Part shown: piece after piece, positions 454 to 56,545 of the stretch | Layout: each line of letters opens with the position of its first letter | Position numbering within the stretch: position 1 is the stretch's first letter | Program-made: the position numbers and the translations under genes | The notes under the pieces: generated by a model | The model's database searches: none | What the model was told of the DNA's origin: nothing | The model's input: the letters and a program-made list of their open reading frames with translations, nothing else | IMG/VR virus record: IMGVR_UViG_3300049825_000338 | Location: 20,600 to 84,599 of that record | Reading direction: 5' to 3' (one strand) | Origin: a virus | Taxonomy: Duplodnaviria > Heunggongvirae > Uroviricota > Caudoviricetes | DNA: 64,000 nucleotides

Positions 454-666
454 TTATTCTAGACGACTAAGAGCTTCGTCAGCCGTGATATTCCCCAACG
501 GACTTCCGACTGTATCAAGCTCTTGCTGCCACTCTTCGTCAGACATTGTTACACGTGCCATAAGAGCGTCAAACTCGTCATAGTCTTCGTTGTCGTCAGT
601 CAGTGGACTTGGTACCATCTCACTCACAATCCTACCGCCTTCATTGTCTCTAGAGCGCCAAACCAC
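454..666 (-). CDS. hypothetical acidic protein; last gene of the leftward operon
   Basis: ORF overlaps upstream lipoprotein gene by 43 nt; followed by 7-bp perfect stem hairpin (aaccctt/aagggtt ~425-445). Confidence 0.35.
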   Translation of the reverse strand: MVWRSRDNEGGRIVSEMVPSPLTDDNEDYDEFDALMARVTMSDEEWQQELDTVGSPLGNITADEALSRLE

Positions 667-2999
667 TTGCCTGTTCTATCAGCATCGCTTGAAAGTCCTC
701 CACCGTAGTGTACCCAGATTAACGCTTGAAACTCGTGAATCTTCATACGAGAAAACTGGTCCGGATGTTGTGTCTTAAGCGTGTTCAAAGCGTTACGCGT
801 AATCTTTGTTGTGTCACGGAACATTCCATCGCCAGGAGCAATGTGGTCCTTAACTGATCCAGCGCCTCGTTGAAAGATGTCTTGAGCGGTGGCGGCTTTC
901 TTTGTTCCTTTGGAATCTAGAGTCAGTTCTTTCATCGAGCCTCGTGACCCTTTATTGTGAAGTGGCGAATTTCCAGCCATAACTCGATAATGCCAGGTCT
1001 GCCCGCTGAAAAAAGTACGCCCTGCCCTACGAAAATAAGCCGTACCGTTATCAAGATTAGGACACCACACGAGTCCGTCATAAAGTTCTTCCGTGACGGT
1101 AAGAGCATCAACATGAATTGGCCGTGGCTTCAGAATTGACACATGGATATCTCCGCTAGGTGACACGTACCGTTTGGTGTTGAATCCAGCAATTCCGGCT
1201 ATGGCGTCAATATTGTCGGCCGCTAAGGAATCTTTACCTGTCCAGACGCGATTATTGTTTTTTCTTGTTCGACCGTCACCTAGAATCGCTGTGTCCAGAA
1301 ATCCATCGGCCTCATCAGCCGTCATAGAAGCAATAATTTCTTCCTTGAGTATACGTCCTTGAACCGTCTTATGTGCGTACGAACCTTCAGTAAACGAATC
1401 TCGAATTGCCAGAGCAGCAGGCCCCCCAACGGTCATTGTAGCCACACAACGATCATCACGATACCCGTACGGCCCTTCTTTAATCACAAATTCATCCGTC
1501 ACAGCACCAATATCAGCAAGCATTGTGACGTACTTGTCGGCGTTCACAGTGACAGACTGTGAACGTGTGATCTTGTTGGGGGAATTCTTAGGGATTGATC
1601 CATCAGAATGAATCCAGCCTAGCAATCGCGCCATTTTGACTCCGCCAACAATGCCAACATTACGGCCAATCGGGGCGGCTGTGTGGATTACGCCACTTGG
1701 TGGCAAAGAGTGTGATGGAGTGCGGTCACGTCGAGATATTGGTCCTGGCATGCGACTAGATGAAGTTATCCAGTTGTGATTTTTGGTGCAAACAACGTCA
1801 AACCTTGGTGACTTTTCGGAATAGCGCTTGCCTGAAATACGAACTACGTTGCCTGGCTCAGCTTGTCCAACATACACGTAGTTTATTGCCTGCCATTCTC
1901 CAACTTTCGTTTTCATGTTATAAGTCAAAGCCATATCACCTGGAATAACCTCAAAATATTTCAGCCAACCGCGCTGTGTAAGTAGTTCTGTTTCGGTGTC
2001 AAAGCAGTCGTTGGTGCTTGAGTAGTCCTTGTTCGGATTGGAGATATTAGAGAAAAATGACGAGTACTTCGGTCCCGATATTGATTGTCGTGATGTCACT
2101 TCGCCACGAAGAACGGCTACAGCCTGCTTTACTTGAAGCGTTCCCTTAGATGTGAACCACGGAAACGGAGGAGCAACTTTGTACTGCTCTGATGCTGACT
2201 TAGTGCCTGCTACAGTTCGGTCATGCCACTCGTTAAACGATCCGTGAGCGCGTAGGGCGTTAATGCTGTAGGCCGCTTCTACGAGAGTGGCTGAGTCAAG
2301 GTCTTTTGTAGAGACCGACCCCTCTTTAAGCTTCCCTCCGCACAGACCGACTTTACCAACTGCCTTGACTGACTTGCCGCAGCGCCACTGCATAAACTCT
2401 AGGTGCTTGGCTTCAATCTTTAGGTCAACCGGGTTCTTCACAATCTCGGCTAATGCTCGCGCTGTTTCGATGTTGCCGTTCTTGACACCAGACCACAAAC
2501 GTCCAGCAGAAAGTGTAGTCGCAGCTGCAACAACCTGATCCATTGGAATGCCGGTATCCGCCGAAATTGCCTTACAATCTTGGTTGGCTATTGAGTACCA
2601 CTTAGAATTGAGGGTGCCTTGAGTGGCCACTGCCAGGTCCACAGCACCAGACTTAGGATTGATTCCCATGGCAAGTTGTCCAGCCACAACAAGATTCGCC
2701 TCATATGCCGCCTTGGAAGGGCCGATGTCGTTCCAGAGGGTCGATAGCTTTGTTTCGGCTCCCTCACTAAATTTCGTAAAGTCACCCGATTCGGTAAGAC
2801 CTTCTACGCTCATTGTGCCGTCTTCGTAGAGTTTTTTCTGAGACGTATCGGACAGTCCCGTGAACAGGAGCTTTAAATCGTCACTACTTGTGAGCGCCAC
2901 ACCTGATCCGTCGCTGCTTCCTCCCGTACCTCCCGACGTAGGAGGTCTACAGGCCGCTGAATGGCAAGCAAAGACTAGTGACTGACGTGCGGACAACAT
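624..2999 (-). CDS. lipoprotein with intein-like Hint domain and LAGLIDADG endonuclease motifs
   Basis: N-term lipobox LVFAC; internal Cys-start splicing block CFDTE..., TxxH block (TKNH), two LAGLIDADG-like motifs (LLGWIHSDGS, FLDTAILGDG), C-terminal block ending FFSGQ|T. Confidence 0.65.
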   Translation of the reverse strand: MLSARQSLVFACHSAACRPPTSGGTGGSSDGSGVALTSSDDLKLLFTGLSDTSQKKLYEDGTMSVEGLTESGDFTKFSEGAETKLSTLWNDIGPSKAAYEANLVVAGQLAMGINPKSGAVDLAVATQGTLNSKWYSIANQDCKAISADTGIPMDQVVAAATTLSAGRLWSGVKNGNIETARALAEIVKNPVDLKIEAKHLEFMQWRCGKSVKAVGKVGLCGGKLKEGSVSTKDLDSATLVEAAYSINALRAHGSFNEWHDRTVAGTKSASEQYKVAPPFPWFTSKGTLQVKQAVAVLRGEVTSRQSISGPKYSSFFSNISNPNKDYSSTNDCFDTETELLTQRGWLKYFEVIPGDMALTYNMKTKVGEWQAINYVYVGQAEPGNVVRISGKRYSEKSPRFDVVCTKNHNWITSSSRMPGPISRRDRTPSHSLPPSGVIHTAAPIGRNVGIVGGVKMARLLGWIHSDGSIPKNSPNKITRSQSVTVNADKYVTMLADIGAVTDEFVIKEGPYGYRDDRCVATMTVGGPAALAIRDSFTEGSYAHKTVQGRILKEEIIASMTADEADGFLDTAILGDGRTRKNNNRVWTGKDSLAADNIDAIAGIAGFNTKRYVSPSGDIHVSILKPRPIHVDALTVTEELYDGLVWCPNLDNGTAYFRRAGRTFFSGQTWHYRVMAGNSPLHNKGSRGSMKELTLDSKGTKKAATAQDIFQRGAGSVKDHIAPGDGMFRDTTKITRNALNTLKTQHPDQFSRMKIHEFQALIWVHYGGGLSSDADRTGKWFGALETMKAVGL

Positions 3000-4793: not shown

Positions 4794-4824
4794 GAGGTCA
4801 TTATGCCCTATCTAGTCCCTCTTG

Positions 4825-5175: not shown

Positions 5176-5196
5176 GAAACCTCCTCGGCTTTCTGT

Positions 5197-11565: not shown

Positions 11566-11577
11566 AACCTAGATATG

Positions 11578-12357: not shown

Positions 12358-12371
12358 CAGTCTAGTCTACT

Positions 12372-13016: not shown

Positions 13017-13173
13017 TATACCGTGTCTGTTGCGTCGTTGTCACGCTGATCTACGCAAACGTAGCGACCTAGAAATGTGGCCAGTAGACGTGCAGACAAC
13101 ATAGCGTGCACTTCGATCATAGTCTTTAGTAGCAGGATCGGTCGACGCTTGCCCGTTGTCCACACATCATAAA

Positions 13174-13455: not shown

Positions 13456-13757
13456 TTGTTTGCCAACTCTCTGATTGAAGGGTTTGCCCCAGATATTCCT
13501 AGGTGCTTATGAACGGCTTTTCTAAGCCTCCTGGTATAAAGTGTATGTCTGTCAAAGGGATGAGGATTATCCAGATAGGTCATGTATCCACAACGAACTT
13601 TTAAGTCACCAAGATCAAATTGCCAGAACCTGTTATCGTTGTCGCCATAAAGTCGTTTAAAGTTTGTTGCGCGACCGGCCTTAACTCCGCTAACTACAAC
13701 GGAATACCACCAAAGTCCTCGTGCTTTCGATTTCTCAATTCGGATACCTTCAGCCAC
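13452..13757 (-). CDS. hypothetical protein (ATGA-coupled to GIY-YIG gene)
   Basis: ORF; start/stop overlap. Confidence 0.4.
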   Translation of the reverse strand: MAEGIRIEKSKARGLWWYSVVVSGVKAGRATNFKRLYGDNDNRFWQFDLGDLKVRCGYMTYLDNPHPFDRHTLYTRRLRKAVHKHLGISGANPSIRELANK

Positions 13758-17612: not shown

Positions 17613-18457
17613 TAGTAATCGTCGTCCTCATCTTCCCGATCTTCGTACTCGCTGTCATCGTAACCCCAACCGTCATCGTCGTCTTCTTCAGACCACACAG
17701 CTGGCCAGATGTAGACCTCTGCGACTTCTTGCTTGATCTCACCTACAACCTCGTAGCGCCACGTGCGGCCCTTGCTGTAGTTGTAATCGTCCGGAATGGA
17801 TACGACATCGGCGGGATTGATCTTCACAACCATCACGCGTGCCCCGCCAAAGCTCTTCAGGTAGTTCTTAGAGCAGAAGTGCAGACCAGTTGAGCAGTGG
17901 TTGCGTCGATTGTCATCCACCTCTCCCCGATTCATCTGAACCGTCTGGCCGATGCTGTTGTCGATCGTTCCGGTGTAGCAGTCGGTGTAGTCATCATGGA
18001 CCTTCTTGAAGGCCAAGAAGTGCCCGTCAGGAGTGATCGGAAGACCAGCAACCTCCAGGAAGTCGTACAACTCGTCACGAGCCGCTACGAACGGGTTGCG
18101 GTACAGATTGGTTATGAACTTGACCCACGCCGCAACGTCCAGACCTTCGTTGATGATTTGGAGTACTCGGTCGGTGAGCGTTGTGTGGACTGGCTCGCCG
18201 TCGTAGTAAACACCGCTGGTGGTTACCGTCAGTTCACCCTCAGGCAAGAGGATCATCGTGTCAGGCAGGCTGCTAAAGGCATCAGCGATGCTCTTGGCTG
18301 GACTGGCCAGCCCGACTAGGTATTCGATGTCCGGGTTCGGGTTACGCAGCGCTTCTAGAGCGTTCTCGAACGCCATCGTACCGGTTTCGATCGAGTGGCT
18401 GTTAAAGTCGTTGTCAAAGAACGTGAGAGTGTTCGATGTGAGGAGATAGTTGATCAT
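17612..18457 (-). CDS. hypothetical protein with poly-acidic C-terminal tail
   Basis: ORF; TAATG stop/start overlap with rsr-like gene; tail EEDDDDGWGYDDSEYEDREDEDDDY. Confidence 0.5.
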   Translation of the reverse strand: MINYLLTSNTLTFFDNDFNSHSIETGTMAFENALEALRNPNPDIEYLVGLASPAKSIADAFSSLPDTMILLPEGELTVTTSGVYYDGEPVHTTLTDRVLQIINEGLDVAAWVKFITNLYRNPFVAARDELYDFLEVAGLPITPDGHFLAFKKVHDDYTDCYTGTIDNSIGQTVQMNRGEVDDNRRNHCSTGLHFCSKNYLKSFGGARVMVVKINPADVVSIPDDYNYSKGRTWRYEVVGEIKQEVAEVYIWPAVWSEEDDDDGWGYDDSEYEDREDEDDDY

Positions 18458-18489
18458 TTGAAAGTTCCTTCCCTTTGTTAATAGATAGC

Positions 18490-20472
18490 TTACTGGCTGA
18501 CTTGGTTTGTGACAACTTGATTGAGAGAATTTTTCCAGGCGATGTACGCAGCCACCTCGTCATCGTGACCGTTGCTGAACAGAAGCGGATAAGTGTTATG
18601 GATGGTGGACAGTACTTCCTTGGACATCGTGTCCACGTCCCAGTAATTCACCATAAATCCTGCGAATCGGTCATCATCTTCACCAAGATCGCTGAAGATT
18701 GGGTGATCCATCACTGTTTCCAGTAGCGCCGGATACCGGTCAAGCTGTGCAACAACCTGCGACCTTGCCCTATGACGAAGAACCACGTCCTTGTATTTCT
18801 CTGACGTAGCGCTGAGCGCCTCACTCCAGTGACGACTTTCTGGTAGACCCAGCTTCCTCACCTCGGCTGGTGTGTAGTGCTTGACCTCTAGAGTTGGGTG
18901 GTCGATACTAAGAACGTTCCACTCCGAACCTGACGGGCTGTCCTGGTGACGTTTGCTGCGACTCTGGTTGGCCCAAAAAAGGTCAGGGTTACTCAAATCA
19001 AACGTCGGTTTAGGACGCTTAGGTGTCGTGGATGCCTGACGAACCTCCTTTGGCTTCTTGGGTAGGTCGTCAAAGTTGATGATATTCTCATCCGGAATAC
19101 GCGCCTCGGTCTTAATCTTGTCCATATCACTATGCGAGCCAACCAGCAAAAAATCATCTCTATGGCGAGAAGATGGATAGTTGAACGTGAGAGTGGTGCG
19201 TACTCCCTTACTTCCTGTTGGAATGACAATGAACTTGTGCCGCAGACGTCGTTCGATATAGACTCTGTGATCACAAGGTACGGAGTAGGTCGGGAACACC
19301 GGACCCTTGGTAAATCGACTAGCGTAGGTAGGATCATGGTCAAGCGCCACATCAATACTATCGATCAAAGGGGCACCACGGTAATTGAACGTGTTACGGG
19401 CCAGACCAAAGTTCTGTACTGTGTCGTACCAGTAGAACGATGCGTCTACGACTGAGCTACAGGCGTCCAATTTGTCTTGAATGTGGCTGATCACCGAAGC
19501 ACGAGCGTCAGTGATGGCATCCCGAACCGCTACGATGCTCTGCTCATCGTATGAGAAGTCTTCACGAGAGGCCGTCACGTCGATCGACCCAATCGGAACA
19601 TCAATGACCACAGCAATTCTGTGCACTCGCAAAGAGTTTTGAAGAACCGAACTCTTTGAAATTGGGTAGATCACGCAACCTTGACGAATGTACGTGCCCT
19701 CATCCAACTCAGACGTTGCCAGCAATATCCGAACGTTGTCGACGTGCAGAATCTCTTCCGGCTCTGCAAAGTTCATGCCTTCGACAGCTGGCACAGGAAA
19801 GAACCCGTTAAGAAAGCGTCGTGCTGCTCGTGCAAACTCGTGATAGTCGCCGTGCTTGATTGAAAGCTTCACCTCGACACCTTGTGGCTCCGAGCAGTCC
19901 TCTTCACCCGCAAGCGTCAGCGCCGGAACGCCGCTGTTTTCGATGAACGCCAAGTAACTGCGTACTCGCGTTCCGTCGTAGCAACGAATCGCAAACTGAT
20001 CGGTGTAGGAGAAAGGCGACTTAGAGCCGAGACCGAGCATACCTACCTGGTCGTTGGTGCTTTCCTTTGACGAGCCAAACAACGTTGTGTACAGCGTGGT
20101 CACGGTCTCGTGATCCATGCCGGTGCCGAAGTCGCGAACACCGAACACAGGATTTAGTGCTGTAGGAACTGTAACCTCGAACGGCACGTCAGCCTTGCCT
20201 GCGGCTACGTGCGAGTCGAATGCGTTAGAGCACAATTCTCGCACGATTGCGCCAGGCTTGTCAGAGTAAAGCTTGTCCACGAGTGTGCGGAAGGCCTTAC
20301 CGTTCGCTTCAATCGTGAATGACTTCACGGTTCCGGTCATGTTCGACTCAAGAACGGTGGTGTCTGCGTTGCGGGGGATCATGATGTGACCTCTTCTGTC
20401 AGGTTGAACTGAGCGTAGTAGGGTGATGTGTCGTGAACTTTTCCTTCGGGACCGAAGACGCCATAGCACCAT
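18490..20472 (-). CDS. GHKL-family ATPase (HSP90/MORC-like); probable start at 20382 (ATGA overlap with upstream gene)
   Basis: N-box RELCSNAFDS, G1 box VRDFGTGM, G2 box GMLGLGSKS. Confidence 0.6.
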   Translation of the reverse strand: MVLWRLRSRRKSSRHITLLRSVQPDRRGHIMIPRNADTTVLESNMTGTVKSFTIEANGKAFRTLVDKLYSDKPGAIVRELCSNAFDSHVAAGKADVPFEVTVPTALNPVFGVRDFGTGMDHETVTTLYTTLFGSSKESTNDQVGMLGLGSKSPFSYTDQFAIRCYDGTRVRSYLAFIENSGVPALTLAGEEDCSEPQGVEVKLSIKHGDYHEFARAARRFLNGFFPVPAVEGMNFAEPEEILHVDNVRILLATSELDEGTYIRQGCVIYPISKSSVLQNSLRVHRIAVVIDVPIGSIDVTASREDFSYDEQSIVAVRDAITDARASVISHIQDKLDACSSVVDASFYWYDTVQNFGLARNTFNYRGAPLIDSIDVALDHDPTYASRFTKGPVFPTYSVPCDHRVYIERRLRHKFIVIPTGSKGVRTTLTFNYPSSRHRDDFLLVGSHSDMDKIKTEARIPDENIINFDDLPKKPKEVRQASTTPKRPKPTFDLSNPDLFWANQSRSKRHQDSPSGSEWNVLSIDHPTLEVKHYTPAEVRKLGLPESRHWSEALSATSEKYKDVVLRHRARSQVVAQLDRYPALLETVMDHPIFSDLGEDDDRFAGFMVNYWDVDTMSKEVLSTIHNTYPLLFSNGHDDEVAAYIAWKNSLNQVVTNQVSQ

Positions 20473-41930: not shown

Positions 41931-42422
41931 TCAGAGTACGGGTTGAACAGACTCCAGAAAACCGACGTAAACGATCGATCGGCCACGAGTCCACGAGCAC
42001 TGCAACACGATGCGCCGAGCCGCTGGATCAAGGCCATAGATAAGTTCAGCGGGCGGGTCTTGAGACGTCACGGTTCTGGTGGCAATACGATACGTGAACA
42101 CCTGGTCATAGGAATTGATGTTCACCGTTTGCCCAGCACGGAGACGTGGGAGCTTACGGAACGGAGCACCGTGACTCGAACGATGACCGGCCAGCCAGAC
42201 AGTACCGACCTCGCCAGGAGCCACAGCCGGTGACCAGCCGTCAAACAAGGTGACGCTACCAGCATCAATTGATTCCTGGTCACCTACGTAGATGTCAGCG
42301 CCGAATCGAAGCGACGGAATCTCCAAGTACCAGTCGGTGGTATTTGAAGAAGCGGAAGCCGGAATGCTTGTAGCTATCGGTAACAGGATTACAGCCAGAA
42401 AGACACACAAAGCTTTCATCAC
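41931..42422 (-). CDS. sortase-family transpeptidase
   Basis: signal peptide; VWLAGHRSS (His), RIVLQCSW (Cys), TRGRSIVYVG (Arg) in SrtA-like order. Confidence 0.6.
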   Translation of the reverse strand: MMKALCVFLAVILLPIATSIPASASSNTTDWYLEIPSLRFGADIYVGDQESIDAGSVTLFDGWSPAVAPGEVGTVWLAGHRSSHGAPFRKLPRLRAGQTVNINSYDQVFTYRIATRTVTSQDPPAELIYGLDPAARRIVLQCSWTRGRSIVYVGFLESVQPVL

Positions 42423-44070: not shown

Positions 44071-45345
44071 TTAGGGAAGCGTGAAGTAAGAAACTACACA
44101 GAATCCTGGATGACAGCGGCTAGCAAACAGTTGCCAGTTTGCGGCTGTTATAACAGGTATAGGCGTGGTGTTGGCGTTCAATACTCCAGTAGCCACAAAG
44201 AACGGTGACGTAGACGGTGCTATAGTGAAGCCGTTTGTAAATTGCTGAACAGCGCCTATACCTAGTGGTGCTCCGTGCCTGCCTGAAATAGCTCCATCTT
44301 CACTAAGTGATTCTGTAATAGAGCGTAGTGCCCCGCCTGTAAGAACAGCTGGGTCACCAACTAACGCACCAATCTTGCCAGAAGCACCACCAATAAACCC
44401 TCCACCGCCACCTGGAGATTTAAGTTCCATAGTTCTTGCAAGTGGAACATTAATAAACGTCTGCATACGTCCACCACTTCCTCCATTAGTGGCAGTACCG
44501 TTTATGGGAGGATTGAATGTTGTGTTTCCTGTGAAAGCGCTAGTTGAAACAACAACGGGCGGAAATCCGTATGCGGGAGGAGAGCTTTGTGAAGAAAAGA
44601 AATGACGATTTAACGAGTAAGACGAAAGGGAATCAAATTTAGAAGGGTTTGCTAAGTTTGAATTGAAGAGAAAGTTCTCCGATAATACCGAAAAATTTCT
44701 GTTCCATGTAGGACTTGCTGAAAGCCCACCCTGCCCTCCAGCTATAAGAATGACTTGTCCGTTCAACCGAAGAACGCTACGACCAAAGCCGCCAGTTGAT
44801 AAGACGTCTCGTGAAACTGCGCCAAACCCGGCTACAGTCCAAGCCGATACACTCCCATCACCACCGTTTCCAAGACCATCACCACCTCGCCCGCCAAGTG
44901 GGCCACCATATGCTCCGTTTGCCCATCTAGCAGGTTCACCTAGGGCAACTTCCAACACATCACCATCAAAGACGTTGACCAGCGCTCTCACCGAACCGTG
45001 ATTTTCATTCGTGACAACCGTATCAGATCGCGTGCTTCGGTAAGCCCCTGTAAGATAAACACCGATAGTTGGCACACCAAGTCGCGTAGCTAGCGACGGA
45101 ACAGGTATTTGCTGCCACTGCACTGGGCCTGAAAAAGTTGCAGCACGGTGGCTAGTTACTGGAACAACAGTCGTAGGAGGAGCTGCGGGAGTCATTGCCA
45201 TACCGGCACTCATTCCGCCCGAACCTGGAGTTAAAATAGGTCCGGGGGAGGGAGGAATTGGTACTCCTGTAAAACTGAAAGAGTTTACTGCCGGAGTTGT
45301 GATTACCTTGTCTAGATCAGGCCAGCGACCCGAAAAGATCGCCAT
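44071..45345 (-). CDS. glycine-rich protein (minor-tail/fibre-like)
   Basis: multiple GGxGG runs (GGRGGDGLGNGGDG, SPGGGGGFIGGASG) as in actinophage glycine-rich minor tail proteins. Confidence 0.45.
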   Translation of the reverse strand: MAIFSGRWPDLDKVITTPAVNSFSFTGVPIPPSPGPILTPGSGGMSAGMAMTPAAPPTTVVPVTSHRAATFSGPVQWQQIPVPSLATRLGVPTIGVYLTGAYRSTRSDTVVTNENHGSVRALVNVFDGDVLEVALGEPARWANGAYGGPLGGRGGDGLGNGGDGSVSAWTVAGFGAVSRDVLSTGGFGRSVLRLNGQVILIAGGQGGLSASPTWNRNFSVLSENFLFNSNLANPSKFDSLSSYSLNRHFFSSQSSPPAYGFPPVVVSTSAFTGNTTFNPPINGTATNGGSGGRMQTFINVPLARTMELKSPGGGGGFIGGASGKIGALVGDPAVLTGGALRSITESLSEDGAISGRHGAPLGIGAVQQFTNGFTIAPSTSPFFVATGVLNANTTPIPVITAANWQLFASRCHPGFCVVSYFTLP

Positions 45346-45450: not shown

Positions 45451-46620
45451 TTAAACACTTCTGTCTCCTCCGGTTCCTCCGGTGCTGATTAGCTCGCCTG
45501 TATGGAGAGCAAAGATTGCGATCTGATCTTCGGTTTTGGCGAATAAAACAGCGTCGGCGCGTTTGTTCGTCGGGAATACAGCCGTCACATTCACTTCTAG
45601 TTTACCGTCATCTGGGTTGTGCCAGCCACCTACCCCGACTGTGGCACCTTCAATCTTTATCGCCATTGCTGCGTCGATTCGCTCTCTAACCGCTTTCACC
45701 ATCGCTGGTTTCGGCCGGGGACCGTCGAACGAGTCGGCAGCAAGAAAGAGTCGATCTGACCCGCCAAGCGCCACGGCAAATCCTTCCGTGATCGGCTCTA
45801 GGCTAGGGACAGCGAGCGTGAAACCTGAATCCGGCTGTGCCAGTGGGTCAGTTGCCCGACTTTCTGGAGACCGCGCAAACCGACCCGCTGAATCGTGGTT
45901 CTTGTTGTAGAACGCTTCACTTTCAACTTCGTCATCACTAATTGAACCAACAACAGCCTTCTTTCGTGGGCGACTCGATGCAGCAAATAGAGGAACGTTC
46001 AGTAGTTCATCATACGTAACTTCACCGCCAGCTATCGGATTTCCTTTGGCTAAAGCGTCTCTAGTTGCGTCAGTCCAATGTCCAACACTACTTCCTGACT
46101 GAAAGTACGCTCCAAGCTTTGAATAAAACGGCTTAGCTGTGCCGATAGCGCTATAAACAGCAAGATCAAAGTCAAGTGCAGCAGCAGTCTTAGCTACTTC
46201 CGTAAGAGCCTGCGTACCATGACCTTGCCTCTTATCCAACATTCTCATGTCTGTGATAGCGACTTGTTTGCTGGTTCTGCTTATCTGAAATTGCACCCCG
46301 CCACGAACTTGTCCTTCGGCGTTACGCACAACAACGACAGAATTACCCATCCAACTTTGAAAGATGTGGCGAAGAGGGTTCAGTTCCTCTATTCCTTGAG
46401 CATCTAGTTCCTTGAGAATCGCCTTTCTCTCACGCTGAATATCGCCACGAATAACCGAAATAGTGCCGCCACTGGAAGCAAACCGGCCTTTCTCGTCGTG
46501 ATTCTTGTTGTAAAATTCTTGTCCGTCTAAGCCAACAAGTTCAGTGAAAGATTCGTGCAAAATCTGAACATCATTTCTAGACCACCACGAAAGAGGCTGT
46601 TCGATTCCTAGAACGCTCAT
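45451..46620 (-). CDS. multidomain polyvalent-type protein: GNAT acetyltransferase domain plus unknown domain, two FYNKNHDxxGRF linker motifs
   Basis: QEFYNKNHDEKGRFAS and EAFYNKNHDSAGRFAR; GNAT-like RQGHGTQAL. Confidence 0.55.
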   Translation of the reverse strand: MSVLGIEQPLSWWSRNDVQILHESFTELVGLDGQEFYNKNHDEKGRFASSGGTISVIRGDIQRERKAILKELDAQGIEELNPLRHIFQSWMGNSVVVVRNAEGQVRGGVQFQISRTSKQVAITDMRMLDKRQGHGTQALTEVAKTAAALDFDLAVYSAIGTAKPFYSKLGAYFQSGSSVGHWTDATRDALAKGNPIAGGEVTYDELLNVPLFAASSRPRKKAVVGSISDDEVESEAFYNKNHDSAGRFARSPESRATDPLAQPDSGFTLAVPSLEPITEGFAVALGGSDRLFLAADSFDGPRPKPAMVKAVRERIDAAMAIKIEGATVGVGGWHNPDDGKLEVNVTAVFPTNKRADAVLFAKTEDQIAIFALHTGELISTGGTGGDRSV

Positions 46621-46802
46621 TGATAAATGCCCTTAGCAGCAAACTCGTCAAGACGTCGGTCTACCGCAAAGTCTCCGAGAATCAGACGTGCGTCCTCAAG
46701 CGAGGCAACAGTTATCGACTCGCCACTAGTCCACAAACGACGCGCTTCCTCTGCCGATAGCGCTGAGGATTCGTCAATCGTCATTGTAGGTAGTAAGTTC
46801 AC
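46617..46802 (-). CDS. hypothetical small protein
   Basis: ATGA-coupled ORF. Confidence 0.35.
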   Translation of the reverse strand: MNLLPTMTIDESSALSAEEARRLWTSGESITVASLEDARLILGDFAVDRRLDEFAAKGIYQ

Positions 46803-48658
46803 TCTGATTCCTTTACGAGCACTGCCTTCAACATCTTACCAGTGATCTTCGCTGCAACAGCACGGTGGTGTCCAGAGAGAATTACTCTGCGTCCATCTGC
46901 CTTCTCATAAACGACCGGGTATGTGTTACCTGCCTGATGAGCGTCAGCAAACGTCTTACCAGTACGTTCGTATTGACCTGTTGTGTAGTGCTGCACTCCC
47001 GACTTAGTGACCCACGGCTGCGTGGCGTGTAGGTTGTCGGTCGGAATGTCAACTAGCCGAGGAGTCTTGACGGCTGCTTCGACCTTCGCACGATCGAACA
47101 GAGGTTCTGTTTTCTTACGTCCAATCGACGGAAATGGTACGGGTACCTTGTCGTGGTGAGCAAATAGCTTCTCAACTCCGGGGTGATCCTTAGCAGGAGA
47201 CTTAATTACTCGGTGAATGGCCTGAGTCATTGTCTCGGCGTTATCTGCGGGCTTCGTGAACCTTGTCTTGACTACTCGGCTAGCCTCTGGAAAGTAGTTA
47301 CGCCCAGACGTGAACTTGCCTTCGGCATCGTGATTTTTGTTGTAGAAGTCATCTGCATCAAGAATCACAAATGAATCAATTGTTTCTTGAATGAGTGATG
47401 CAGTCACCTGAATACCAGCAAAGACAAGAGAATCGGGCATCAGTGCAATTTTCTGAACAGGAAAACGTCCAGTCTCATGAACTACAGCGTTCTGCGCTTC
47501 TGTCTCAGTTGCCAGCGCTCTGATAGCGCCACGACTCTTGAACATCTCGGAGTGAGAAACGTAAGCCGCACGTTCTCCATGACGATCAAACCCTCGGCCG
47601 GTGGCAGCGTGACCGAACACATCATGAACGGCGCGAAACATGTCATTTTCCTGATCGGTAAAGAACGTGTGACTTCCCGTCACTGCCGTCTTCATCACCT
47701 TGATCGTGCCCGCTTCAACGTCGGCAGTCATCATCTTGGCTGTTCGGTATGGGTCGTATGAAACAAACTCGACCTTGATTCCCTTAGACGTCATAAAATC
47801 AAACTGCTGTTTCACTTCACCAGCAAGTGCTCGATACGATGGGTGCGCCGATGGATCATCAACAGGCATAGCTTCATACGCCTTAGCCATCTTTGAGCGT
47901 AGCTCGGCGGGAGCCATTATTTCATCCCAAGCACCTTCAGATCGTTCGGTGCTCTGCGTGTACGCATCCCGAATTTGACGCGCTCGTGCTGATCCAGTCA
48001 CATCTTCGATTACTTCTGGATTGGCTACGTTTACGTCAGAGGCAGTGAACCGACCCTTTGCGTCATGATTCTTATTGAAGAATTCATCAGAACCTTGATC
48101 GAGCGACCAACGCCCATTTGACGTGTGGTAGATGTGGTACTGAGCAAATAGATTGTCATCAGCCACCACAAACTCATTTGTCTGAACTACAGATAGGGTC
48201 ACTTTCTCGGCACCCTGACGACTCGTTAGCGTATTCACGATACCTTGAAACATAGGCTTCTTCATGTAGTCACCTTCACGTCGATACGATTTGTCGCTGA
48301 TCTGGATTAACCGATCAAACCTCAGATACGACTCACGACCTGTCTTATCCCACTTGCCTTCACCGATGCTCACTCGGCCAGGTCCAGACTTCGACGTTAG
48401 TTGAAGTGCAACTAGATTCTTGCCGTCAGCGGTACGGCCGATAATCAGCACAGGACGATCCTTGCTTTGCGAAGCGTCTTCTTGAAACGGAACGCGTGCC
48501 CACACCACTTCGCCTGGATCAGCGTGACCGTCTGGATATCGTGGGCGGTAGGCAATCTTGATATTAGAGAACGACACATCAGGAAGAGCTGTCGATCCTG
48601 ATGTAGTAGTGAACCGACCTACGTTGTCGTGAGCCTTGTTGTAGAATTCGTCATCCAT
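46799..48658 (-). CDS. multidomain polyvalent-type protein: MazF/PemK-like, unknown and ParB-like nuclease domains separated by three FYNKNHDxxG[RK]F motifs
   Basis: DEFYNKAHDNVGRF, DEFFNKNHDAKGRF, DDFYNKNHDAEGKF. PGEVVWARVPF...RPVLIIG (PemK-like). YPVVYEKADGRRVILSGHHRAVAAKITG (ParB GxxR/HHR box). Confidence 0.6.
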   Translation of the reverse strand: MDDEFYNKAHDNVGRFTTTSGSTALPDVSFSNIKIAYRPRYPDGHADPGEVVWARVPFQEDASQSKDRPVLIIGRTADGKNLVALQLTSKSGPGRVSIGEGKWDKTGRESYLRFDRLIQISDKSYRREGDYMKKPMFQGIVNTLTSRQGAEKVTLSVVQTNEFVVADDNLFAQYHIYHTSNGRWSLDQGSDEFFNKNHDAKGRFTASDVNVANPEVIEDVTGSARARQIRDAYTQSTERSEGAWDEIMAPAELRSKMAKAYEAMPVDDPSAHPSYRALAGEVKQQFDFMTSKGIKVEFVSYDPYRTAKMMTADVEAGTIKVMKTAVTGSHTFFTDQENDMFRAVHDVFGHAATGRGFDRHGERAAYVSHSEMFKSRGAIRALATETEAQNAVVHETGRFPVQKIALMPDSLVFAGIQVTASLIQETIDSFVILDADDFYNKNHDAEGKFTSGRNYFPEASRVVKTRFTKPADNAETMTQAIHRVIKSPAKDHPGVEKLFAHHDKVPVPFPSIGRKKTEPLFDRAKVEAAVKTPRLVDIPTDNLHATQPWVTKSGVQHYTTGQYERTGKTFADAHQAGNTYPVVYEKADGRRVILSGHHRAVAAKITGKMLKAVLVKESE

Positions 48659-49100: not shown

Positions 49101-49345
49101 GGTGAAGTACCATCACCATGAATGAAAAATCCTGTAGACACCAAAAATTCTGGGTCCGGATAATACATAGTCATGTGGTACCCACGAGGGTTTAGAAGCT
49201 CAGCGTTCACCAACCAGTGAAGTCCGAGGTTGTTAAATTCAGCCCACGGCATGTAGCTTTCGACATTGCCTTCAAACATCGGGTGAATGACTTCCGGTAC
49301 ATAAAGATCAGAGATGATACACCGCCTCGTAGTCGGGTGTCTCAT
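49028..49345 (-). CDS. hypothetical protein (probable internal start)
   Basis: fills the 49101-49307 gap; overlaps both neighbours if full length. Confidence 0.3.
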   Translation of the reverse strand: MRHPTTRRCIISDLYVPEVIHPMFEGNVESYMPWAEFNNLGLHWLVNAELLNPRGYHMTMYYPDPEFLVSTGFFIHGDGTSPWEGVDPNHPIARRAFKRVKKFLK

Positions 49346-50111
49346 CGAATTGACCGGTCATAAGGTCTTTGCCAAACCACGAGTGTGACCGTCCTGCGTC
49401 TCGTTTGCCGATTGATGCAAAGTGAATCGGCTGCACGTCTGCACCGTCACGGACTGCCTGAAGAACTGCGTCTAGGTCGTTCTTTGTTCCTTGCGAAAGG
49501 TACTGACGATTCTCGCTACCATACTTTTCAAACACCTCAGCCACGTTAGTTCTATCAATGTTGTCCCTAAACCTAAACCCGGCCTTGGCCCAGGCGTACG
49601 GTCCAACAGCACCAGCACCTGTCGAAGAAGCATAGACTTCGATGTCGTTCACACCGGCTTCGTGATAGAACTTCAGTGCTTTAGCATTTATGGCGGTACC
49701 TATGCCTTTTCCTTGCATAGTTAAGTAGTTAATTGACAAATAATCGTGTGAAGCAATAAGCTTTCTTGTCTGTGAATCAACCATAATTCGTCGCTTAAAT
49801 TCACCTATTGGTGCCCCATCCTTATCACTGATTACTCCACTAACCGCAAAGCTGTGCCCAATACTTTCTCTAAACACTACTGCTTTAGCACTCCATTCGT
49901 TATTTGTCTGGGTAAAGGCTTCAGCAATTTGAATTTCAGTTAATTTATCAAACTGTCTGAATACGTTTCGTCCAGATGAAGAGGAGGAAGAAATAGGAGA
50001 AATAGGTACATCACTACCAGGAAGTGAGCCTCCGCTGCCCGTAGGGGGAGGAGCGCAGGTTGACGAATGACAGGCGAAACTAAGAGACTGAACTACGTGC
50101 AACATCAGCAA
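49308..50111 (-). CDS. lipoprotein with GNAT acetyltransferase domain
   Basis: lipobox SFAC with leader paralogous to gene 624-2999; MQGKGIGTAINAKALKFYHEAG GNAT motif. Confidence 0.55.
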   Translation of the reverse strand: MLMLHVVQSLSFACHSSTCAPPPTGSGGSLPGSDVPISPISSSSSSGRNVFRQFDKLTEIQIAEAFTQTNNEWSAKAVVFRESIGHSFAVSGVISDKDGAPIGEFKRRIMVDSQTRKLIASHDYLSINYLTMQGKGIGTAINAKALKFYHEAGVNDIEVYASSTGAGAVGPYAWAKAGFRFRDNIDRTNVAEVFEKYGSENRQYLSQGTKNDLDAVLQAVRDGADVQPIHFASIGKRDAGRSHSWFGKDLMTGQFDETPDYEAVYHL

Positions 50112-50610
50112 TCCGCGCTTCGACCGCAGCGAGTAGAGCTGCCATTTCAGAGGGACTTTCAGACGGAAGAATTATCTCCAGTTCAAGAGGAAACGAGACT
50201 GTCAACGGTTCAGCAAGAGGAACCGAGTAACGACCGAAGTCACCATCCGCCCATACTTCCATGCGGTCAAATTCAATGGAAGTCGGCATCGTACCAGTGT
50301 ACTCGTCTTCACCGTAACTCAGGGACAGGTGCGGCAGCCACTCAGGATGCTCCGATTCACAAAGATCGGCTACAGCCTGACGGTAAATGTCAGCCTGTTT
50401 CGGGTCAAGATAGACGACTTCAGCGGCCCATTTGCCCTCTCCAAGCTGCCCGGTTCCGACCACTGAGAGTGATCTTTTAGGAAGGGTTGGCGCAAGCGCT
50501 CCGACTCGTTGACACCACGAAGCGTAACTACTTTCTGTGGTATTTTCACTGTACGCTAAGGTCATGTGCCCTTCACCGATAGCGTTGGTCGGTACTAGTG
50601 CGATGATCAC
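50080..50610 (-). CDS. 2H phosphoesterase (LigT-like cyclic phosphodiesterase/2'-5' RNA ligase family)
   Basis: two H-x-[TS]-x motifs, HMTL and HLSL, ~88 aa apart in a 176-aa protein. Confidence 0.55.
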   Translation of the reverse strand: MIIALVPTNAIGEGHMTLAYSENTTESSYASWCQRVGALAPTLPKRSLSVVGTGQLGEGKWAAEVVYLDPKQADIYRQAVADLCESEHPEWLPHLSLSYGEDEYTGTMPTSIEFDRMEVWADGDFGRYSVPLAEPLTVSFPLELEIILPSESPSEMAALLAAVEARIADVARSSVS

Positions 50611-50889: not shown

Positions 50890-51246
50890 TCATTCTTCCA
50901 AGTCTACCCACTGGCTTCGATCGTTCAACACCTGAGTTCTGATGTTTTTCGGATTCATGGCTTTCTCAACCAGCGACTCAACAGACGGCCGACCCGCAGC
51001 CAGTGCTACAGCCGTACGAAACCACGCTTTCCATTCAGGAGTCTCGCGTAGACGCTGGAACGCAGCAGTCTTGTTTCGGTGTTGCTCACGGCTGTCTGTC
51101 GCTTCGCCAACAGCACCAGAAGCTCGGTGAACAAGCCGAACACCGGTATGCGATTTGTTGCGATGCTGTCCACCGGCACCCGAACCACGAATATGCGTCT
51201 CGTCAAAGTCTTTCGCTGTGATCGTCAGAATCAGTTCTCGGCTCAT
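50890..51246 (-). CDS. GGQ-motif peptidyl-tRNA hydrolase domain protein (ArfB/release-factor-like)
   Basis: RGSGAGGQHRNKSHTGVRLVH matches the ArfB GGQ block; DSREQHRNKTAAFQRL follows. Confidence 0.75.
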   Translation of the reverse strand: MSRELILTITAKDFDETHIRGSGAGGQHRNKSHTGVRLVHRASGAVGEATDSREQHRNKTAAFQRLRETPEWKAWFRTAVALAAGRPSVESLVEKAMNPKNIRTQVLNDRSQWVDLEE

Positions 51247-54966: not shown

Positions 54967-55206
54967 ATGTTCACATTCGCCATACAATCAGTTAGTGGCC
55001 ACATTTCTTACTTTGACTCATCTCGGGTAGTTTCTTTTGTAGAAATAAAGGACGAACCCGACAAGGTGATAGTAGTTATGGATAACGGAACATCGGAACC
55101 GGTGTTTGTGGGCATTGAAGCTTCTCCAGCAGTCTTTTACAGAACTCTTCAAATGAGGTCTAGATTTCTCAACGATGTGCCTATTCTCAAGGAAGTGACA
55201 CTATGA
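54967..55206 (+). CDS. hypothetical protein
   Basis: ORF only. Confidence 0.4.
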   Translation: MFTFAIQSVSGHISYFDSSRVVSFVEIKDEPDKVIVVMDNGTSEPVFVGIEASPAVFYRTLQMRSRFLNDVPILKEVTL

Positions 55207-55916
55207 CACTTTTTCCAGTGTTAGACCTTTCTTCGGATAACTTCGTTCAAGAACCACTTCTGGACAATGCCATCAAGCAGGCCAGACTGCACCGCACTTT
55301 GGCCGAGTCTCGGTCGGCGTCGGCGGCATCCGATCAGATCAGAATTCTCGCTGACGAAGCGCTGCGAACTGAAAGACACATTGTTGCCGGTGATTCACAC
55401 AACAATACTCTCTGGATGTACGGCGACGTCAACATGGACAAGACGCGTATGATCATTGCCGATCTGAACGCACGACACCGTATTGATCCTACAGCCGATC
55501 TCACGCTTTATGTGTGCTCTGAAGGAGGCGACATTATTGCTGGCCTGGCACTGTACGACCAGCTGAAGGCGCTTCAGGCAGCGGGTCACCACCTGACCAC
55601 GATTGCTACCGGAATGTGCGCCAGCATGGGCGTACCGATCTGGTGTGCTGGTGATGTTCGGCTGATGGGCGACAACTGCACGTTTCTACTTCATCAACCA
55701 AGTCTCGGTTCCGAGGGAACCTTAGGTGAATTGTATGATACAGTGGAATTAGCTGAACAGCTTTACAGTCAAATTCTAGACATCCTTGCCAGCACTTCGG
55801 AGAAGTCGGCTCGATCTCTTAGAGCCTTGATTAAGCGTAAAGACCTCTGGCTCAGTGCTAAAGACATGGCCGAATATGGATTCGGTCAGCTATTATCGGA
55901 AGGATTACCCCTATGA
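55203..55916 (+). CDS. clpP: ClpP-family (S14) serine protease
   Basis: SEGGDIIAG, GMCASMG (Ser), LLHQPS (His) in ClpP order. Confidence 0.8.
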   Translation: MTLFPVLDLSSDNFVQEPLLDNAIKQARLHRTLAESRSASAASDQIRILADEALRTERHIVAGDSHNNTLWMYGDVNMDKTRMIIADLNARHRIDPTADLTLYVCSEGGDIIAGLALYDQLKALQAAGHHLTTIATGMCASMGVPIWCAGDVRLMGDNCTFLLHQPSLGSEGTLGELYDTVELAEQLYSQILDILASTSEKSARSLRALIKRKDLWLSAKDMAEYGFGQLLSEGLPL

Positions 55917-56545
55917 CAAAGACACACCACGTATTTATCATTGACACAAGCGGCTCGATGATCACCCACATTTCGGCAGCTCAAGAGTTTCTCGACTCTA
56001 GAATGATTGAGTTGCCAGAGGGAGATTCGATCACTATCGGCACGTTTTCGGACGACTACACATCACGGATTGAGTACACTCGCAAAGCTAACGTCAATGA
56101 GTTGGCCACGGCTCCGCTTCGTGCGGGCGGTATGACGGCTCTTCGTGACGCTGTAGGCATCGGCATTGACCGAGTTGGCCGAGTGCTTAGGCAGCTTGAC
56201 GATCGTCACCGGCCAGCTAAAGTTCTTTTTACAGTCTTCACTGACGGAGGAGAAAACTGTTCGCGTCGGTACAGCAGCCACCAATTGCGAGAAATGATTC
56301 ATCACCAAAAGGATAAGTACAGTTGGGACTTCATGTTTATCGGCCCTCGCGGCGACGCCGCCCCACTTGACTGGCTTGACCAGGAGGATGCGGCGTTCTA
56401 TGTTCCGTCGTGGTCAGCTACGACGGTACTTCGGTCGCTAAACACGACATATTCTAATGTGTACACAGGCGCTGATTTTTCGGCTAGTCGAAGCACGTTG
56501 TCAAACACTTTAGCGCAGGATCAGCCACAAGAGGTTGCGTTGTGA
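55913..56545 (+). CDS. von Willebrand factor A domain protein
   Basis: FIIDTSGSM MIDAS, GGMTALRDAVG, FTDGGEN. Confidence 0.65.
   Translation: MTKTHHVFIIDTSGSMITHISAAQEFLDSRMIELPEGDSITIGTFSDDYTSRIEYTRKANVNELATAPLRAGGMTALRDAVGIGIDRVGRVLRQLDDRHRPAKVLFTVFTDGGENCSRRYSSHQLREMIHHQKDKYSWDFMFIGPRGDAAPLDWLDQEDAAFYVPSWSATTVLRSLNTTYSNVYTGADFSASRSTLSNTLAQDQPQEVAL

Follow-up and report, generated by a model that had tools for sequence, protein, structure and literature searches.

A short peptide that precedes five different modules in two adjacent phage proteins: a candidate head-cargo leader

Two adjacent genes of a tailed phage, encoding proteins of 619 and 389 amino acids, raise the question of what role is played by a short peptide that recurs ahead of one unrelated protein module after another. 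A sequence-only reading of this locus had described a 13-residue motif occurring five times, three times in the 619-aa protein and twice in the 389-aa protein, with each copy at the boundary before a different module. A six-frame regex scan of the window (the whole 64-kb stretch of DNA analyzed) bears out this count; the pattern F-[FY]-N-K-[NA]-H-D-x-x-G-[RK]-F has exactly five matches, all on the minus strand and all confined to these two ORFs, and the loose core [HR]D..G[RK][FW] has a single extra match, inside a 27-codon frame. The residues F, N, K, H, D, G, and F are fixed across the five copies, referred to here as H-type leaders. The genes (from the ORF list, with homologue alignment for the 389-aa protein) and leaders (from the regex scan) are as follows.

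46799..48658, minus strand: 619-aa polyvalent protein (leader + MazF/PemK; leader + L5-gp82-like; leader + predicted ParB/Srx fold)
46617..46802, minus strand: 61-aa ORF with a 4-nt overlap with each neighboring gene
45451..46620, minus strand: 389-aa protein (leader + GNAT-like; leader + conserved module with no assigned function)
48611..48646, minus strand: H-type leader copy 1, FYNKAHDNVGRF, aa 5-16 of the 619-aa ORF, at the N terminus
48047..48082, minus strand: H-type leader copy 2, FFNKNHDAKGRF, aa 193-204 of the 619-aa ORF
47312..47347, minus strand: H-type leader copy 3, FYNKNHDAEGKF, aa 438-449 of the 619-aa ORF
46480..46515, minus strand: H-type leader copy 4, FYNKNHDEKGRF, aa 36-47 of the 389-aa ORF
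45877..45912, minus strand: H-type leader copy 5, FYNKNHDSAGRF, aa 237-248 of the 389-aa ORF

Profile, PHROG, Foldseek, and homologue-alignment results together place a different module behind each of the five leaders, in agreement with the earlier view that these are polyvalent-type proteins composed of unrelated effector-like modules.

48284..48517, minus strand: MazF/PemK-like toxin domain, aa 48-125 of the 619-aa protein (Pfam PF02452, PHROG 1936)
48107..48160, minus strand: DDNLFAQYHIYHTSNGRW element, aa 167-184, an accessory element of the central-domain family
47399..48001, minus strand: central domain with a RAVHDVFGH motif, aa ~220-420 (PHROG 3170/Phage_L5_gp82-like)
46802..47191, minus strand: predicted ParB/sulfiredoxin-fold domain with an SGHHRAVAA motif, aa ~490-619 (AlphaFold2 and Foldseek)
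46021..46458, minus strand: GNAT acetyltransferase-like module, aa ~55-200 of the 389-aa protein (PHROG 3810, PDB 3gy9, homologue P0122)
45454..45855, minus strand: conserved C-terminal module with no assigned function, aa ~256-389 of the 389-aa protein

The 619-aa protein, which is encoded in identical form on a circular ~106-kb contig, matches PF02452 at an E value of 1.7e-6 (28.6 bits versus a curated cut-off of 23.1). Its central domain matches PHROG 3170 at 1e-47 over aa 255-410 and is modeled by AlphaFold2 with a pLDDT of >90 over aa ~220-420; one homologue, P0005, matches Phage_L5_gp82 (PF25735), and no solved structure close to this domain was found. Another homologue, gp205 of Rhodococcus phage E3, is annotated as a "structural protein," so that packaging is possible. 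The DDNLFAQYHIYHTSNGRW element lies before or after the central domain depending on the homologue, and an accessory element of this type accompanied the H-type leader in none of 341 leader copies, indicating no general linkage. The C-terminal domain has no Pfam or PDB match by sequence; its AlphaFold2 model (core pLDDT, 83 to 91) recovered Srx, ParB, Noc, KorB, SbnI, PadC, and similar proteins as its top 50 Foldseek PDB matches (best E value, 3e-3; probability up to 1.0; target-normalized TM-score, 0.5 to 0.6), and the domain is predicted to have a ParB/sulfiredoxin fold with putative nuclease activity.

The first module of the 389-aa protein has no Pfam match of its own and only weak matches to PHROG 3810 (1.3e-3) and PDB 3gy9 (E value of 0.05 over aa 96-187), while aa 289-482 of homologue P0122, for which a PF00583 match is precomputed, align with it at 49% identity; the GNAT identification is weak but consistent. 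The C-terminal module is 45 to 57% identical in P0124-P0127 and P0005, proteins of other architectures in which it stands behind Cys-type leaders (see below). The 61-aa ORF is translationally coupled, follows the 619-aa gene, and has no family match in Pfam or PHROG; as a guess, it may encode an antitoxin or immunity protein.

The earlier proposal that the underlying DNA is also conserved did not hold up. Any two of the window copies share 25 to 27 of 36 nucleotides (69 to 75%) with a longest exact run of 5 to 12 nt, which is only what the codons impose, and 2 to 6 of the 8 to 10 codons for shared residues differ. Because synonymous sites differ between copies, the leader is conserved at the protein level. 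The DNA string quoted as recurring on the coding strand in fact belongs to the plus strand of the window, antisense to both genes. The claim that the peptide delimits modules fared better, in that each copy stands before another module and all three copies of the 619-aa protein lie between folded modules, in AlphaFold2 segments with a pLDDT of <50; AlphaFold2 yields no structure for the peptide.

The peptide is not confined to this phage but widespread, with at least 120 viral and at least 120 genomic loci in bacteria and archaea, and the window form is a minority variant. The wide consensus is [IVL]-x-K-[FY]-N-x-[YN]-H-D-x-x-G-R-F-[TSA], in which the x after N varies (Pro, E, K, Q, H, R, or T); FYNKNHDxxGRF is a rare local N-K-N variant of this very common peptide. 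The motif is followed by a flexible tether of ~20 residues enriched in Gly, Ser, Thr, and Ala (57% G/S/T/A/P over these 20 residues versus 36% overall in 309 motif-bearing ORFs). Among the matches listed, the hosts include Alphaproteobacteria, Clostridia, Verrucomicrobia, and Chloroflexi as well as Methanobrevibacter and Nitrososphaera, and both viruses and proviruses are represented; since the hosts span many bacterial phyla and archaea, any partner of the peptide must belong to the virus.

When 1.84 billion proteins were searched exhaustively with the profile, 147 matched at E values of ≤1e-3, most of them with 2 to 11 copies at a median spacing of 235 aa (interquartile range, 180 to 341), or one domain per interval. 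Domains in these proteins include ADPrib_exo_Tox, ART-PolyVal, LPD1, InPase, Zeta toxin, NUDIX, 2H, MuF, Portal_Mu, and PemK; Zeta toxin and ART domains occur in homologues as well, and P0128 (3371 aa) combines 9 regex motif copies (10 by profile stretches) with 8 ADPrib_exo_Tox stretches. Multicopy matches carry domains such as ART-PolyVal, LPD1, InPase, and Zeta toxin, several of which take their names from the polyvalent-protein study or figure in it, which agrees with the polyvalent theme noted earlier. No embedded protease common to the multicopy proteins was found.

The suggestion of a modular linker system survives in part. The peptide does sit between domains, but it is not merely a linker: 76 of 150 viral and 56 of 111 genomic copies in complete ORFs, among the matches listed, fall within the first 50 residues, and other copies directly follow portal, MuF, or prohead-protease domains. 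Many N-terminal copies head short, single-domain-sized ORFs, and loci L014, L015, and L081 contain arrays of adjacent small ORFs, each opening with a leader and having its own start codon; some such arrays lie beside portal or MuF genes. Paralogous leaders within one genome (as in L014 and in L015) share every amino acid, those preceding the motif included, and differ at synonymous sites. In the IMG/VR loci listed, the nearest upstream gene most often encodes a portal, a MuF-like head-morphogenesis protein, a head protease, or a terminase. Portal domains are present in 10 of 114 motif proteins, MuF in 9, and S78 or XkdF prohead proteases in 10; in the proteins examined, the motif lies 10 to 70 residues past the portal, S78-protease, or DUF2213 domain, and some portals end 17 to 34 residues past the motif. 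MuF homologues P0016-P0018 carry the motif after the MuF domain and again between subsequent modules. We found no Pfam or NCBIfam model, no PDB chain, and no paper in the literature searched that describes this peptide, in line with the sequence-only reading, which did not recognize the motif as a described domain, and a literature and database search returned no proteomic, structural, or genetic data on any leader-bearing protein. An apparently undescribed peptide marks phage-head-associated proteins in bacterial and archaeal viruses.

Homologues can have QPRDxxGRW, ACHxxxCxPPxxGxGGS (Cys-type), or HDQxxHGxW at these junctions in place of the H-type peptide, which is one of at least four types that replace one another there. 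Dissimilar types coexist in single proteins (P0002, P0008, P0035, and P0135) and in the genome studied here, where two further window ORFs have Cys-type leaders and at least three more such leaders occur just outside the window.

49308..50111, minus strand: 267-aa ORF, Cys-type leader + GNAT-like module (BLASTP 5e-19 to module 1 of P0122, which has the PF00583 match), in the same effector cluster as the 619-aa and 389-aa genes
50013..50084, minus strand: Cys-type leader LSFACHSSTCAPPPTGSGGSLPGS near the N terminus of the 267-aa ORF
624..2999, minus strand: 791-aa ORF, Cys-type leader at aa ~8-32 (nt 2904-2978), weak DUF7178 match

The Logan gene call for the 791-aa ORF starts 33 codons later.

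The window encodes rIIA/rIIB, DNA polymerase I, a primase, an endolysin, and a sigma factor and is therefore phage encoded. The 619-aa and 389-aa genes lie in the nonstructural arm of the ~106-kb genome, among sigma-factor, primase, tRNA-repair, NAD-salvage, and rII genes, with RF-1/ArfB-like, 2H phosphoesterase, and GNAT genes as neighbors, a divergent strand switch ~2.5 to 5.8 kb off, genes for a ClpP-like protease and a VWA protein 7 kb away, and the endolysin gene on the same strand block. No head or packaging genes were found within 10 kb on either side or among the window ORFs tested. A terminase gene lies ~4 kb past the left edge of the window on the same circular contig and therefore ~50 kb from the two genes, and the head genes are presumably in the 26.6 kb of the genome outside the sequence covered.

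By analogy with the capsid-targeting sequence (CTS) of phage T4, we tentatively favor, at somewhat less than an even chance, a reading in which the peptide is a head-cargo leader that loads modules into the phage head and is probably cut. The unit would be a leader, a flexible tether, and one effector domain, occurring free (leader in the first ~50 residues), chained (up to 11 units), or attached after a portal, MuF, or prohead-protease domain. Within the assembling procapsid, the leader would be recognized by some internal part of the head that is conserved (maturation protease, scaffold, or the inner surface of the capsid), and the module would thereby be loaded; as the head matures, cuts at the leaders or next to them would then probably divide the chain, and the MazF-like, L5-gp82-like, ParB/Srx-like, and GNAT modules, together with the one of no assigned function, would reach the host along with the DNA, each as a separate effector. 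The analysis shows the repetition of the peptide, selection on it at the protein level, one domain per interval, the tether, its spread among hosts, its ties to head genes at other loci, and its exchange for other leader types; a recognition partner, cleavage, and any packaging of the 619-aa and 389-aa proteins are inferred. Their position in the nonstructural arm, with no head gene within 10 kb, speaks against head cargo, as do modules fused to portal or MuF, which should need no targeting tag, and four dissimilar, interchangeable, and coexisting leader types are awkward for a single receptor or protease. The conserved stretch of ~13 to 19 residues is long for a protease site.

Part of the same evidence could be explained if the peptide were only a processing site for a trans-acting prohead or other phage protease, with no targeting role and with N-terminal copies as gene-fission vestiges or short propeptides. 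One-domain spacing with up to 11 copies per protein, the flexible tether, and positions following protease, portal, and MuF domains, from which modules would have to be freed, would all fit, and Iyer et al. predicted proteolytic release of polyvalent modules (PMC5512222). We nevertheless consider this unlikely, because cutting achieves little where about half of the copies lie, within 50 residues of the N terminus, or where some portals end shortly past the motif, and because whole leaders, including pre-motif residues, are conserved among paralogues; the length of the conserved stretch for a protease site, dissimilar leader types within one chain and the lack of a common embedded protease also count against it. 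If the peptide were instead a never-cut docking tag on the inner capsid, scaffold, or portal, its junction position would result only from evolutionary fusion and splitting of tag-plus-domain units. Encapsulin cargo-loading peptides and the C-terminal tail of the HK97 prohead protease, short tethered peptides that direct cargo inside an HK97-fold shell, offer precedents. Free N-terminal and C-terminal copies exist, a tether after the motif is the usual layout of docking peptides, the entire leader is constrained within each genome, and modules that are separate genes here are fused in P0008. As with the HK97 tail, S78 prohead-protease domains have the motif C-terminal to them. Unlike the present peptide, however, which is N-terminal or internal in a tailed phage with a terminase and whose shell binding is putative, those precedents are C-terminal and single copy with another consensus, and encapsulin cargo has an adjacent shell gene. 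Eleven tags per chain would be excessive, portal or MuF fusions need none, several tag types share one genome, and uncut chains of great length would need to get through the tail, although the N4 virion RNA polymerase does so; a purely docking role is quite improbable.

The gene neighborhood, from the RF-1/ArfB-like, 2H phosphoesterase, and GNAT genes to the nearby strand switch and the ClpP-like and VWA genes, would suit intracellular takeover proteins that in this phage are not packaged, whose peptide would dock them onto another hub encoded by the phage or be no more than a passive cap between domains. We think this improbable, since elsewhere portal, MuF, and protease genes and domains closely accompany the peptide; in T4, too, the internal-protein and alt genes lie away from head genes, and the endolysin gene here shares the strand block. 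Very unlikely, in our estimate, is that the junction peptides self-cleave without a protease and so split the chain into separate effectors, the H-type N-x-x-H-D (invariant Asn, then His-Asp) breaking the chain, and the Cys-type Ala-Cys-His and the accessory element's His-[VITA]-[Ser/Cys] acting likewise, upon a trigger inside the capsid or after injection. Comparable cuts are made at the N-P-T-H autocleavage loop of FlhB/YscU and the Asn-Pro of reovirus mu1, and N-P-x-H does occur inside K-F-N-P-Y-H-D, but here the Pro position is variable and no surrounding fold is predicted. Finally, the junctions might serve DNA-level recombination for cassette shuffling, with no functional peptide. VENN in CdiA and PxxxxDPxGL in Rhs are pre-toxin boundary motifs behind which, similarly, a variable toxin module begins; genomes have clearly exchanged modules by shuffling at leader junctions, and leader-first ORF arrays resemble orphan toxin cassettes. 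The low nucleotide identity and short exact runs of the copies, their synonymous variation under fixed amino acids here and in L014 and L015, and the separate start codons of array ORFs leave DNA-level recombination unsupported; codon analysis largely refutes this reading, which is extremely unlikely.

The favored head-cargo reading has its closest parallel in T4, where the leader of the internal proteins is removed by the prohead protease gp21. These internal proteins are diverse defense proteins with only the capsid-targeting sequence in common, which sends them into the scaffolding core (PMC3012670). Like the CTS of IPI-III and Alt, the peptide is a short conserved leader on otherwise unrelated anti-host proteins whose genes need not adjoin head genes; five H-type leaders precede five modules in the window, and each of two further ORFs opens with a Cys-type leader. 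Unlike the CTS, which has no sequence resemblance to it, occurs as one N-terminal copy per protein, and belongs to one phage group, the peptide, whose leader function is putative, is also internal (up to 11 times, and after portal, MuF, and protease domains) and spans phyla and archaea. The two proteins likewise resemble the polyvalent proteins of Iyer et al. (2017, PMC5512222) in joining unrelated conflict-type domains (MazF/PemK above the Pfam cut-off, with GNAT-like and predicted ParB/Srx folds) in one phage polypeptide, and they fall within the range of 2 to 15 unrelated domains per polypeptide; they differ in being short, in lacking the embedded zincin peptidases proposed there to release modules, and in not adjoining packaging genes. 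The words "linker" and "conserved motif" do not occur in that paper, and its processing, peptidase, MuF, and portal passages mention no junction peptide. MuF polymorphic toxins (Jamet et al. 2017, PMC5576092; Zhang et al. 2012, PMC3482391) similarly place variable effectors on a tailed-phage head protein; the 619-aa and 389-aa proteins have no match to the MuF domain PF04233 at E values of ≤0.1, while P0016-P0018 do. In the position of a MuF toxin's immunity gene, immediately downstream, the 619-aa gene has the coupled 61-aa ORF with no family match. We found no mention of a motif, linker, junction, or cleavage in Jamet et al., nor is a demarcating motif named in the passages where Zhang et al. 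treat MuF.

If the head-cargo reading is correct, the set of packaged and injected proteins, now mostly "hypothetical," would be readable from sequence in bacterial and archaeal viruses alike. The same reading would account for the making and dismantling of giant polyvalent proteins, by fusing, splitting, and duplicating units of leader, tether, and domain, and would provide a short portable tag for directing foreign proteins into phage capsids, where the T4 CTS serves T4 only. Swaps of leader type at the same junction constitute a natural experiment, in which co-variation could reveal the recognition partner.

The motif F-[FY]-N-K-[NA]-H-D-x-x-G-[RK]-F, termed here the H-type leader, occurs exactly five times in a six-frame regular-expression scan of all 64 kb, and every copy lies in one of the two open reading frames (ORFs) to which the sequence-only reading had assigned the repeat:

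46799-48658, minus strand: 619-aa ORF (ORF list), with motif copies at aa 5-16, 193-204 and 438-449 (regex scan)
46617-46802, minus strand: 61-aa ORF between the two genes, overlapping the 619-aa stop codon and the 389-aa start codon by 4 nt each
45451-46620, minus strand: 389-aa ORF (ORF list), with motif copies at aa 36-47 and 237-248 (regex scan)

Each copy is preceded by acidic residues and followed by a Ser/Thr/Gly-rich stretch. Pairs of copies share 25 to 27 of 36 nucleotides (longest exact runs, 5 to 12 nt), and in any pair 2 to 6 of the 8 to 10 codons for shared residues differ; therefore, selection acts on the peptide. The DNA conservation that had been remarked on is a by-product of this peptide conservation, and the conserved string quoted as coding lies on the antisense strand. 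The codon evidence led us to reject a DNA repeat or recombination junction, the latter being largely excluded as a rival explanation; chance or plain internal duplication of one domain family was ruled out, as the modules are unrelated. No near-identical DNA was found in cultured phages, the protein had no match in IMG/VR, and a promoter and terminator scan gave signals no higher than shuffled expectation. The 61-aa ORF had no family match; its product could counteract the MazF-like module as an antitoxin or immunity protein.

The modules that follow the leaders were assigned with differing certainty. The MazF/PemK-like module proposed earlier is above the Pfam cut-off (aa 48-125 of the 619-aa protein). 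The central segment matches PHROG 3170 (1e-47), and in the AlphaFold2 model of the 619-aa protein only this segment (aa ∼220-420) exceeds a pLDDT of 90; a homologue of the domain matches Pfam Phage_L5_gp82, and no close solved structure was found. For the last ∼130 residues, modeled separately with a core pLDDT of 83 to 91, the structure matches were only sulfiredoxin, ParB, Noc, KorB, and SbnI, and the ParB/Srx fold is therefore confirmed at the level of the predicted structure. This fold agrees with the ParB-like call made from sequence alone, although PDB sequence and profile searches gave no match and sequence profiles fail to reach ParB/Srx. The GNAT assignment in the 389-aa protein is weak but consistent across sequence comparisons, and the C-terminal module of that protein is found again in other architectures. 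AlphaFold had been suggested as a means of revealing a discrete docking element, but in the 619-aa protein each of the three copies falls in a region with a pLDDT of <50.

Central-domain homologues occur in many architectures, together with Zeta toxin, PemK, MuF, ART, and GNAT domains. In cultured phages they include Rhodococcus phage E3 gp205 (4608-7184 of locus L262), annotated as a "structural protein," and Mycobacterium phage Ronan gp100 (3662-4963 of locus L001); the domain is also present in ∼200 Bixzunavirus genomes, within a protein annotated as hypothetical.

Judged by sequence, the window motif is a variant of a very common peptide. Many central-domain homologues carry 1 to 3 copies of the form K-F-N-P-[YN]-H-D-x-x-G-R-F. 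Searches with back-translated DNA patterns located the N-K-N variant seen in the window at 16 IMG/VR loci and 39 metagenome loci (the window contig not among the latter), and the N-P-[YN] form at at least 120 IMG/VR loci and at least 120 loci in species-representative genomes. Carriers among the species-representative matches listed span Alphaproteobacteria, Clostridia, Verrucomicrobia, Planctomycetes, Chloroflexi, Spirochaetes, Bacteroidetes, and Actinobacteria, as well as Methanobrevibacter, Methanotrichaceae, and Nitrososphaera, where the portal of provirus Pro-Nvie1 contains the peptide. A profile built from the five window copies alone and run exhaustively against 1.84 billion representatives, a profile search of the kind that had been proposed, recovered 147 proteins at an E value of ≤1e-3, most with 2 to 11 copies because single-copy proteins cannot reach this threshold. 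Successive copies in these proteins are spaced by a median of 235 aa (interquartile range, 180 to 341), and the matches represent polyvalent proteins of the classical type, bearing ADPrib_exo_Tox, ART-PolyVal, LPD1, InPase, Zeta toxin, and NUDIX domains, further domains being 2H, topoisomerase IB, MuF, and Portal_Mu. One of them, P0128 (3,371 aa), combines 9 regex copies (10 profile stretches) of the motif with 8 ADPrib_exo_Tox stretches. A word-indexed protein search with the motif as the only query gave no match, and tblastn with a 23-aa consensus gave 3 weak phage matches and no plasmid match, a search whose low sensitivity makes it uninformative. When a motif-bearing protease or MuF protein served as the tblastn query, the alignments covered the catalytic domains alone, so that no cultured phage carrying the motif was recognized.

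Among the matches listed, 76 of 150 viral and 56 of 111 genomic copies in complete ORFs fall within the first 50 residues, and the remainder are mostly internal. The description of the motif as a mark of module boundaries stands for the one-domain spacing, but about half of the copies in complete ORFs are N terminal. At several loci (L014, L015, and L081), runs of adjacent small ORFs each begin with a leader. Counting only genes of at least 200 aa, the one closest upstream most commonly encodes a portal, MuF-like head morphogenesis protein, head protease, or terminase (among the matches listed), and the motif proteins themselves contain portal (10/114), MuF (9/114), and S78 or XkdF prohead protease (10/114) domains; in the proteins examined, the motif lies 10 to 70 residues past the end of a portal, S78 protease, or DUF2213 domain. 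Residues G, S, T, A, and P make up 57% of the 20 positions after the motif versus 36% overall, while the preceding residues are ordinary. Paralogous leaders within one genome have the same amino acids even ahead of the motif and differ at synonymous sites.

Other peptides can take the place of the H-type leader. GNAT-module homologues have a different peptide at the position of window EFYNKNHDEKGRFASSGG: a Cys type in P0121 and P0123 ([VA][FA]AC[HY]xxxC[AR]PPxxGxGGS) and an Arg type in P0122 (FYxxxQPRDxxG[RQ]W). A fourth type, KHxxGxHDQxxHGxW, occurs on both sides of the central domain in ∼850-aa proteins. Its fuller form, KH[LRQ]xG[QE]HDQx[TS]HG[NS]WA, was seen in central-domain homologues among P0020 to P0100, others of which have an Arg-type [FY]NPxQPRDxxGRW. 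Leader types are mixed within single proteins (P0002, P0008, P0035, and P0135); the 938-aa chain of P0008 holds two GNAT-like modules, one PemK, and one ParB-like module, each behind an Arg- or Cys-type leader, and these modules are separate genes or parts of different proteins in the window genome. The window and the adjoining locus L141 carry further elements:

50013-50084, minus strand: Cys-type leader of a 267-aa ORF (49308-50111) (sequence pattern [VA]FAC[HY]xxxC[AR]PPxxGxGGS)
2904-2978, minus strand: Cys-type leader of a 791-aa ORF (624-2999) (same sequence pattern)
8826-8873, 9265-9315 and 10055-10105 of L141: Cys-type leader array on small ORFs of ∼105-145 aa (pattern FL[TS]xx[IV][IV]AFAC[HY]..C.PP..G.GGS)
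48107-48160, minus strand: accessory element DDNLFAQYHIYHTSNGRW, consensus DNL[YF]x(3-7)HH[VITA][SC]xGR

Behind its leader, the 267-aa ORF shows homology to a GNAT module. The L141 array places at least 3 more Cys-type leaders of this genome just past the left window edge, adjoining the WhiB and terminase genes. The accessory element goes with the central-domain family; it can precede or follow the domain, and in some proteins it forms the very C terminus. A general coupling of DNL[YF]..HH[VI]SxGR to the H-type leader was rejected (0 of 341 copies). The His-hydrophobic-Ser/Cys stretch of the element resembles autoproteolytic HFS/HLT sites. Self-cleavage of the junction peptides themselves seems very improbable.

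The window is the nonstructural arm of a circular ∼106-kb actinophage-like genome. Its two coordinate offsets relative to Logan contig SRR35533331_34691 (105,914 bp) differ by 105,914 bp less ∼30 bases, so the contig is either circular or terminally redundant, and it probably represents a complete genome of ∼105.9 kb. Genes in the window include a sigma factor, primases, DNA polymerase I, rIIA/rIIB, NAMPT, PRPP synthase, RNA ligase, endolysin, a ClpP-like protease, and a sortase-like gene, with WhiB close by on the contig. Directly upstream of the leader-bearing genes are two that, with them, look like an effector island, and other genes of the arm are also listed:

50890-51246, minus strand: RF-1/ArfB-like peptidyl-tRNA hydrolase domain protein
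50080-50610, minus strand: 2H (2'-5' RNA ligase family) phosphoesterase
44071-45345, minus strand: 424-aa Gly-rich protein encoded by the next gene downstream of the 389-aa one; no Pfam or PHROG match
41931-42422, minus strand: sortase family (PF04203; Pfam match on the Logan gene call, no PHROG match)
55203-56545, plus strand: ClpP-family protease (PHROG "head maturation protease," 3e-34), followed by a VWA-domain protein; both are surrounded by replication genes and are not part of a head module
9644-20472, minus strand: rIIA/rIIB; NAMPT and PRPP synthase (NAD salvage); RNA ligase, nucleotidyltransferase, and metallophosphoesterase, a tRNA-repair-like set

The 619-aa and 389-aa proteins belong to a known class, the polyvalent proteins. 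This class and effector fusions to MuF, portal, and capsid protease domains are already described in the sections covered of PMC5512222, PMC9503650, PMC5576092, and PMC3482391, and those sections were not found to mention the H-type or other junction peptides. The motif has no Pfam, NCBIfam, or PDB entry (PDB by sequence and profile search), and a literature string search found no relevant paper for any of the four peptide types, bearing out the impression that it is not a described domain. The leader family and the mutual replacement of its types appear to be undescribed.

The capsid-targeting sequence (CTS) of phage T4 internal proteins serves in both loading and processing, and the genes of those proteins are also scattered. 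We tentatively favor a CTS-like loading-and-processing leader as the role of the H-type peptide, because the CTS combines these two roles. T4 internal proteins are diverse defense proteins whose sole common feature is this leader (PMC3012670). A motif followed by a tether and often located near the N terminus is in line with a recognition peptide, and also with a pure docking tag, which we consider decidedly unlikely; copies set one domain apart, or placed behind protease, portal, and MuF domains, agree with release by cleavage, and also with a pure cleavage site, an alternative that we regard as unlikely. Observations that weigh against a CTS-like leader include the following: dissimilar leader types coexist, and the two window genes have a nonstructural location, with no head genes within 10 kb, in contrast to the peptide's usual head-gene context. 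An intracellular role of the proteins in the window phage strikes us as improbable.

On the CTS-like reading, a virus-encoded partner inside the head would recognize the leader, and the modules would probably be released by cleavage at or beside the leaders. A host range that extends to archaea speaks for a partner of viral origin, and the linkage of the peptide to portal, MuF, and protease genes would place this partner inside the head.
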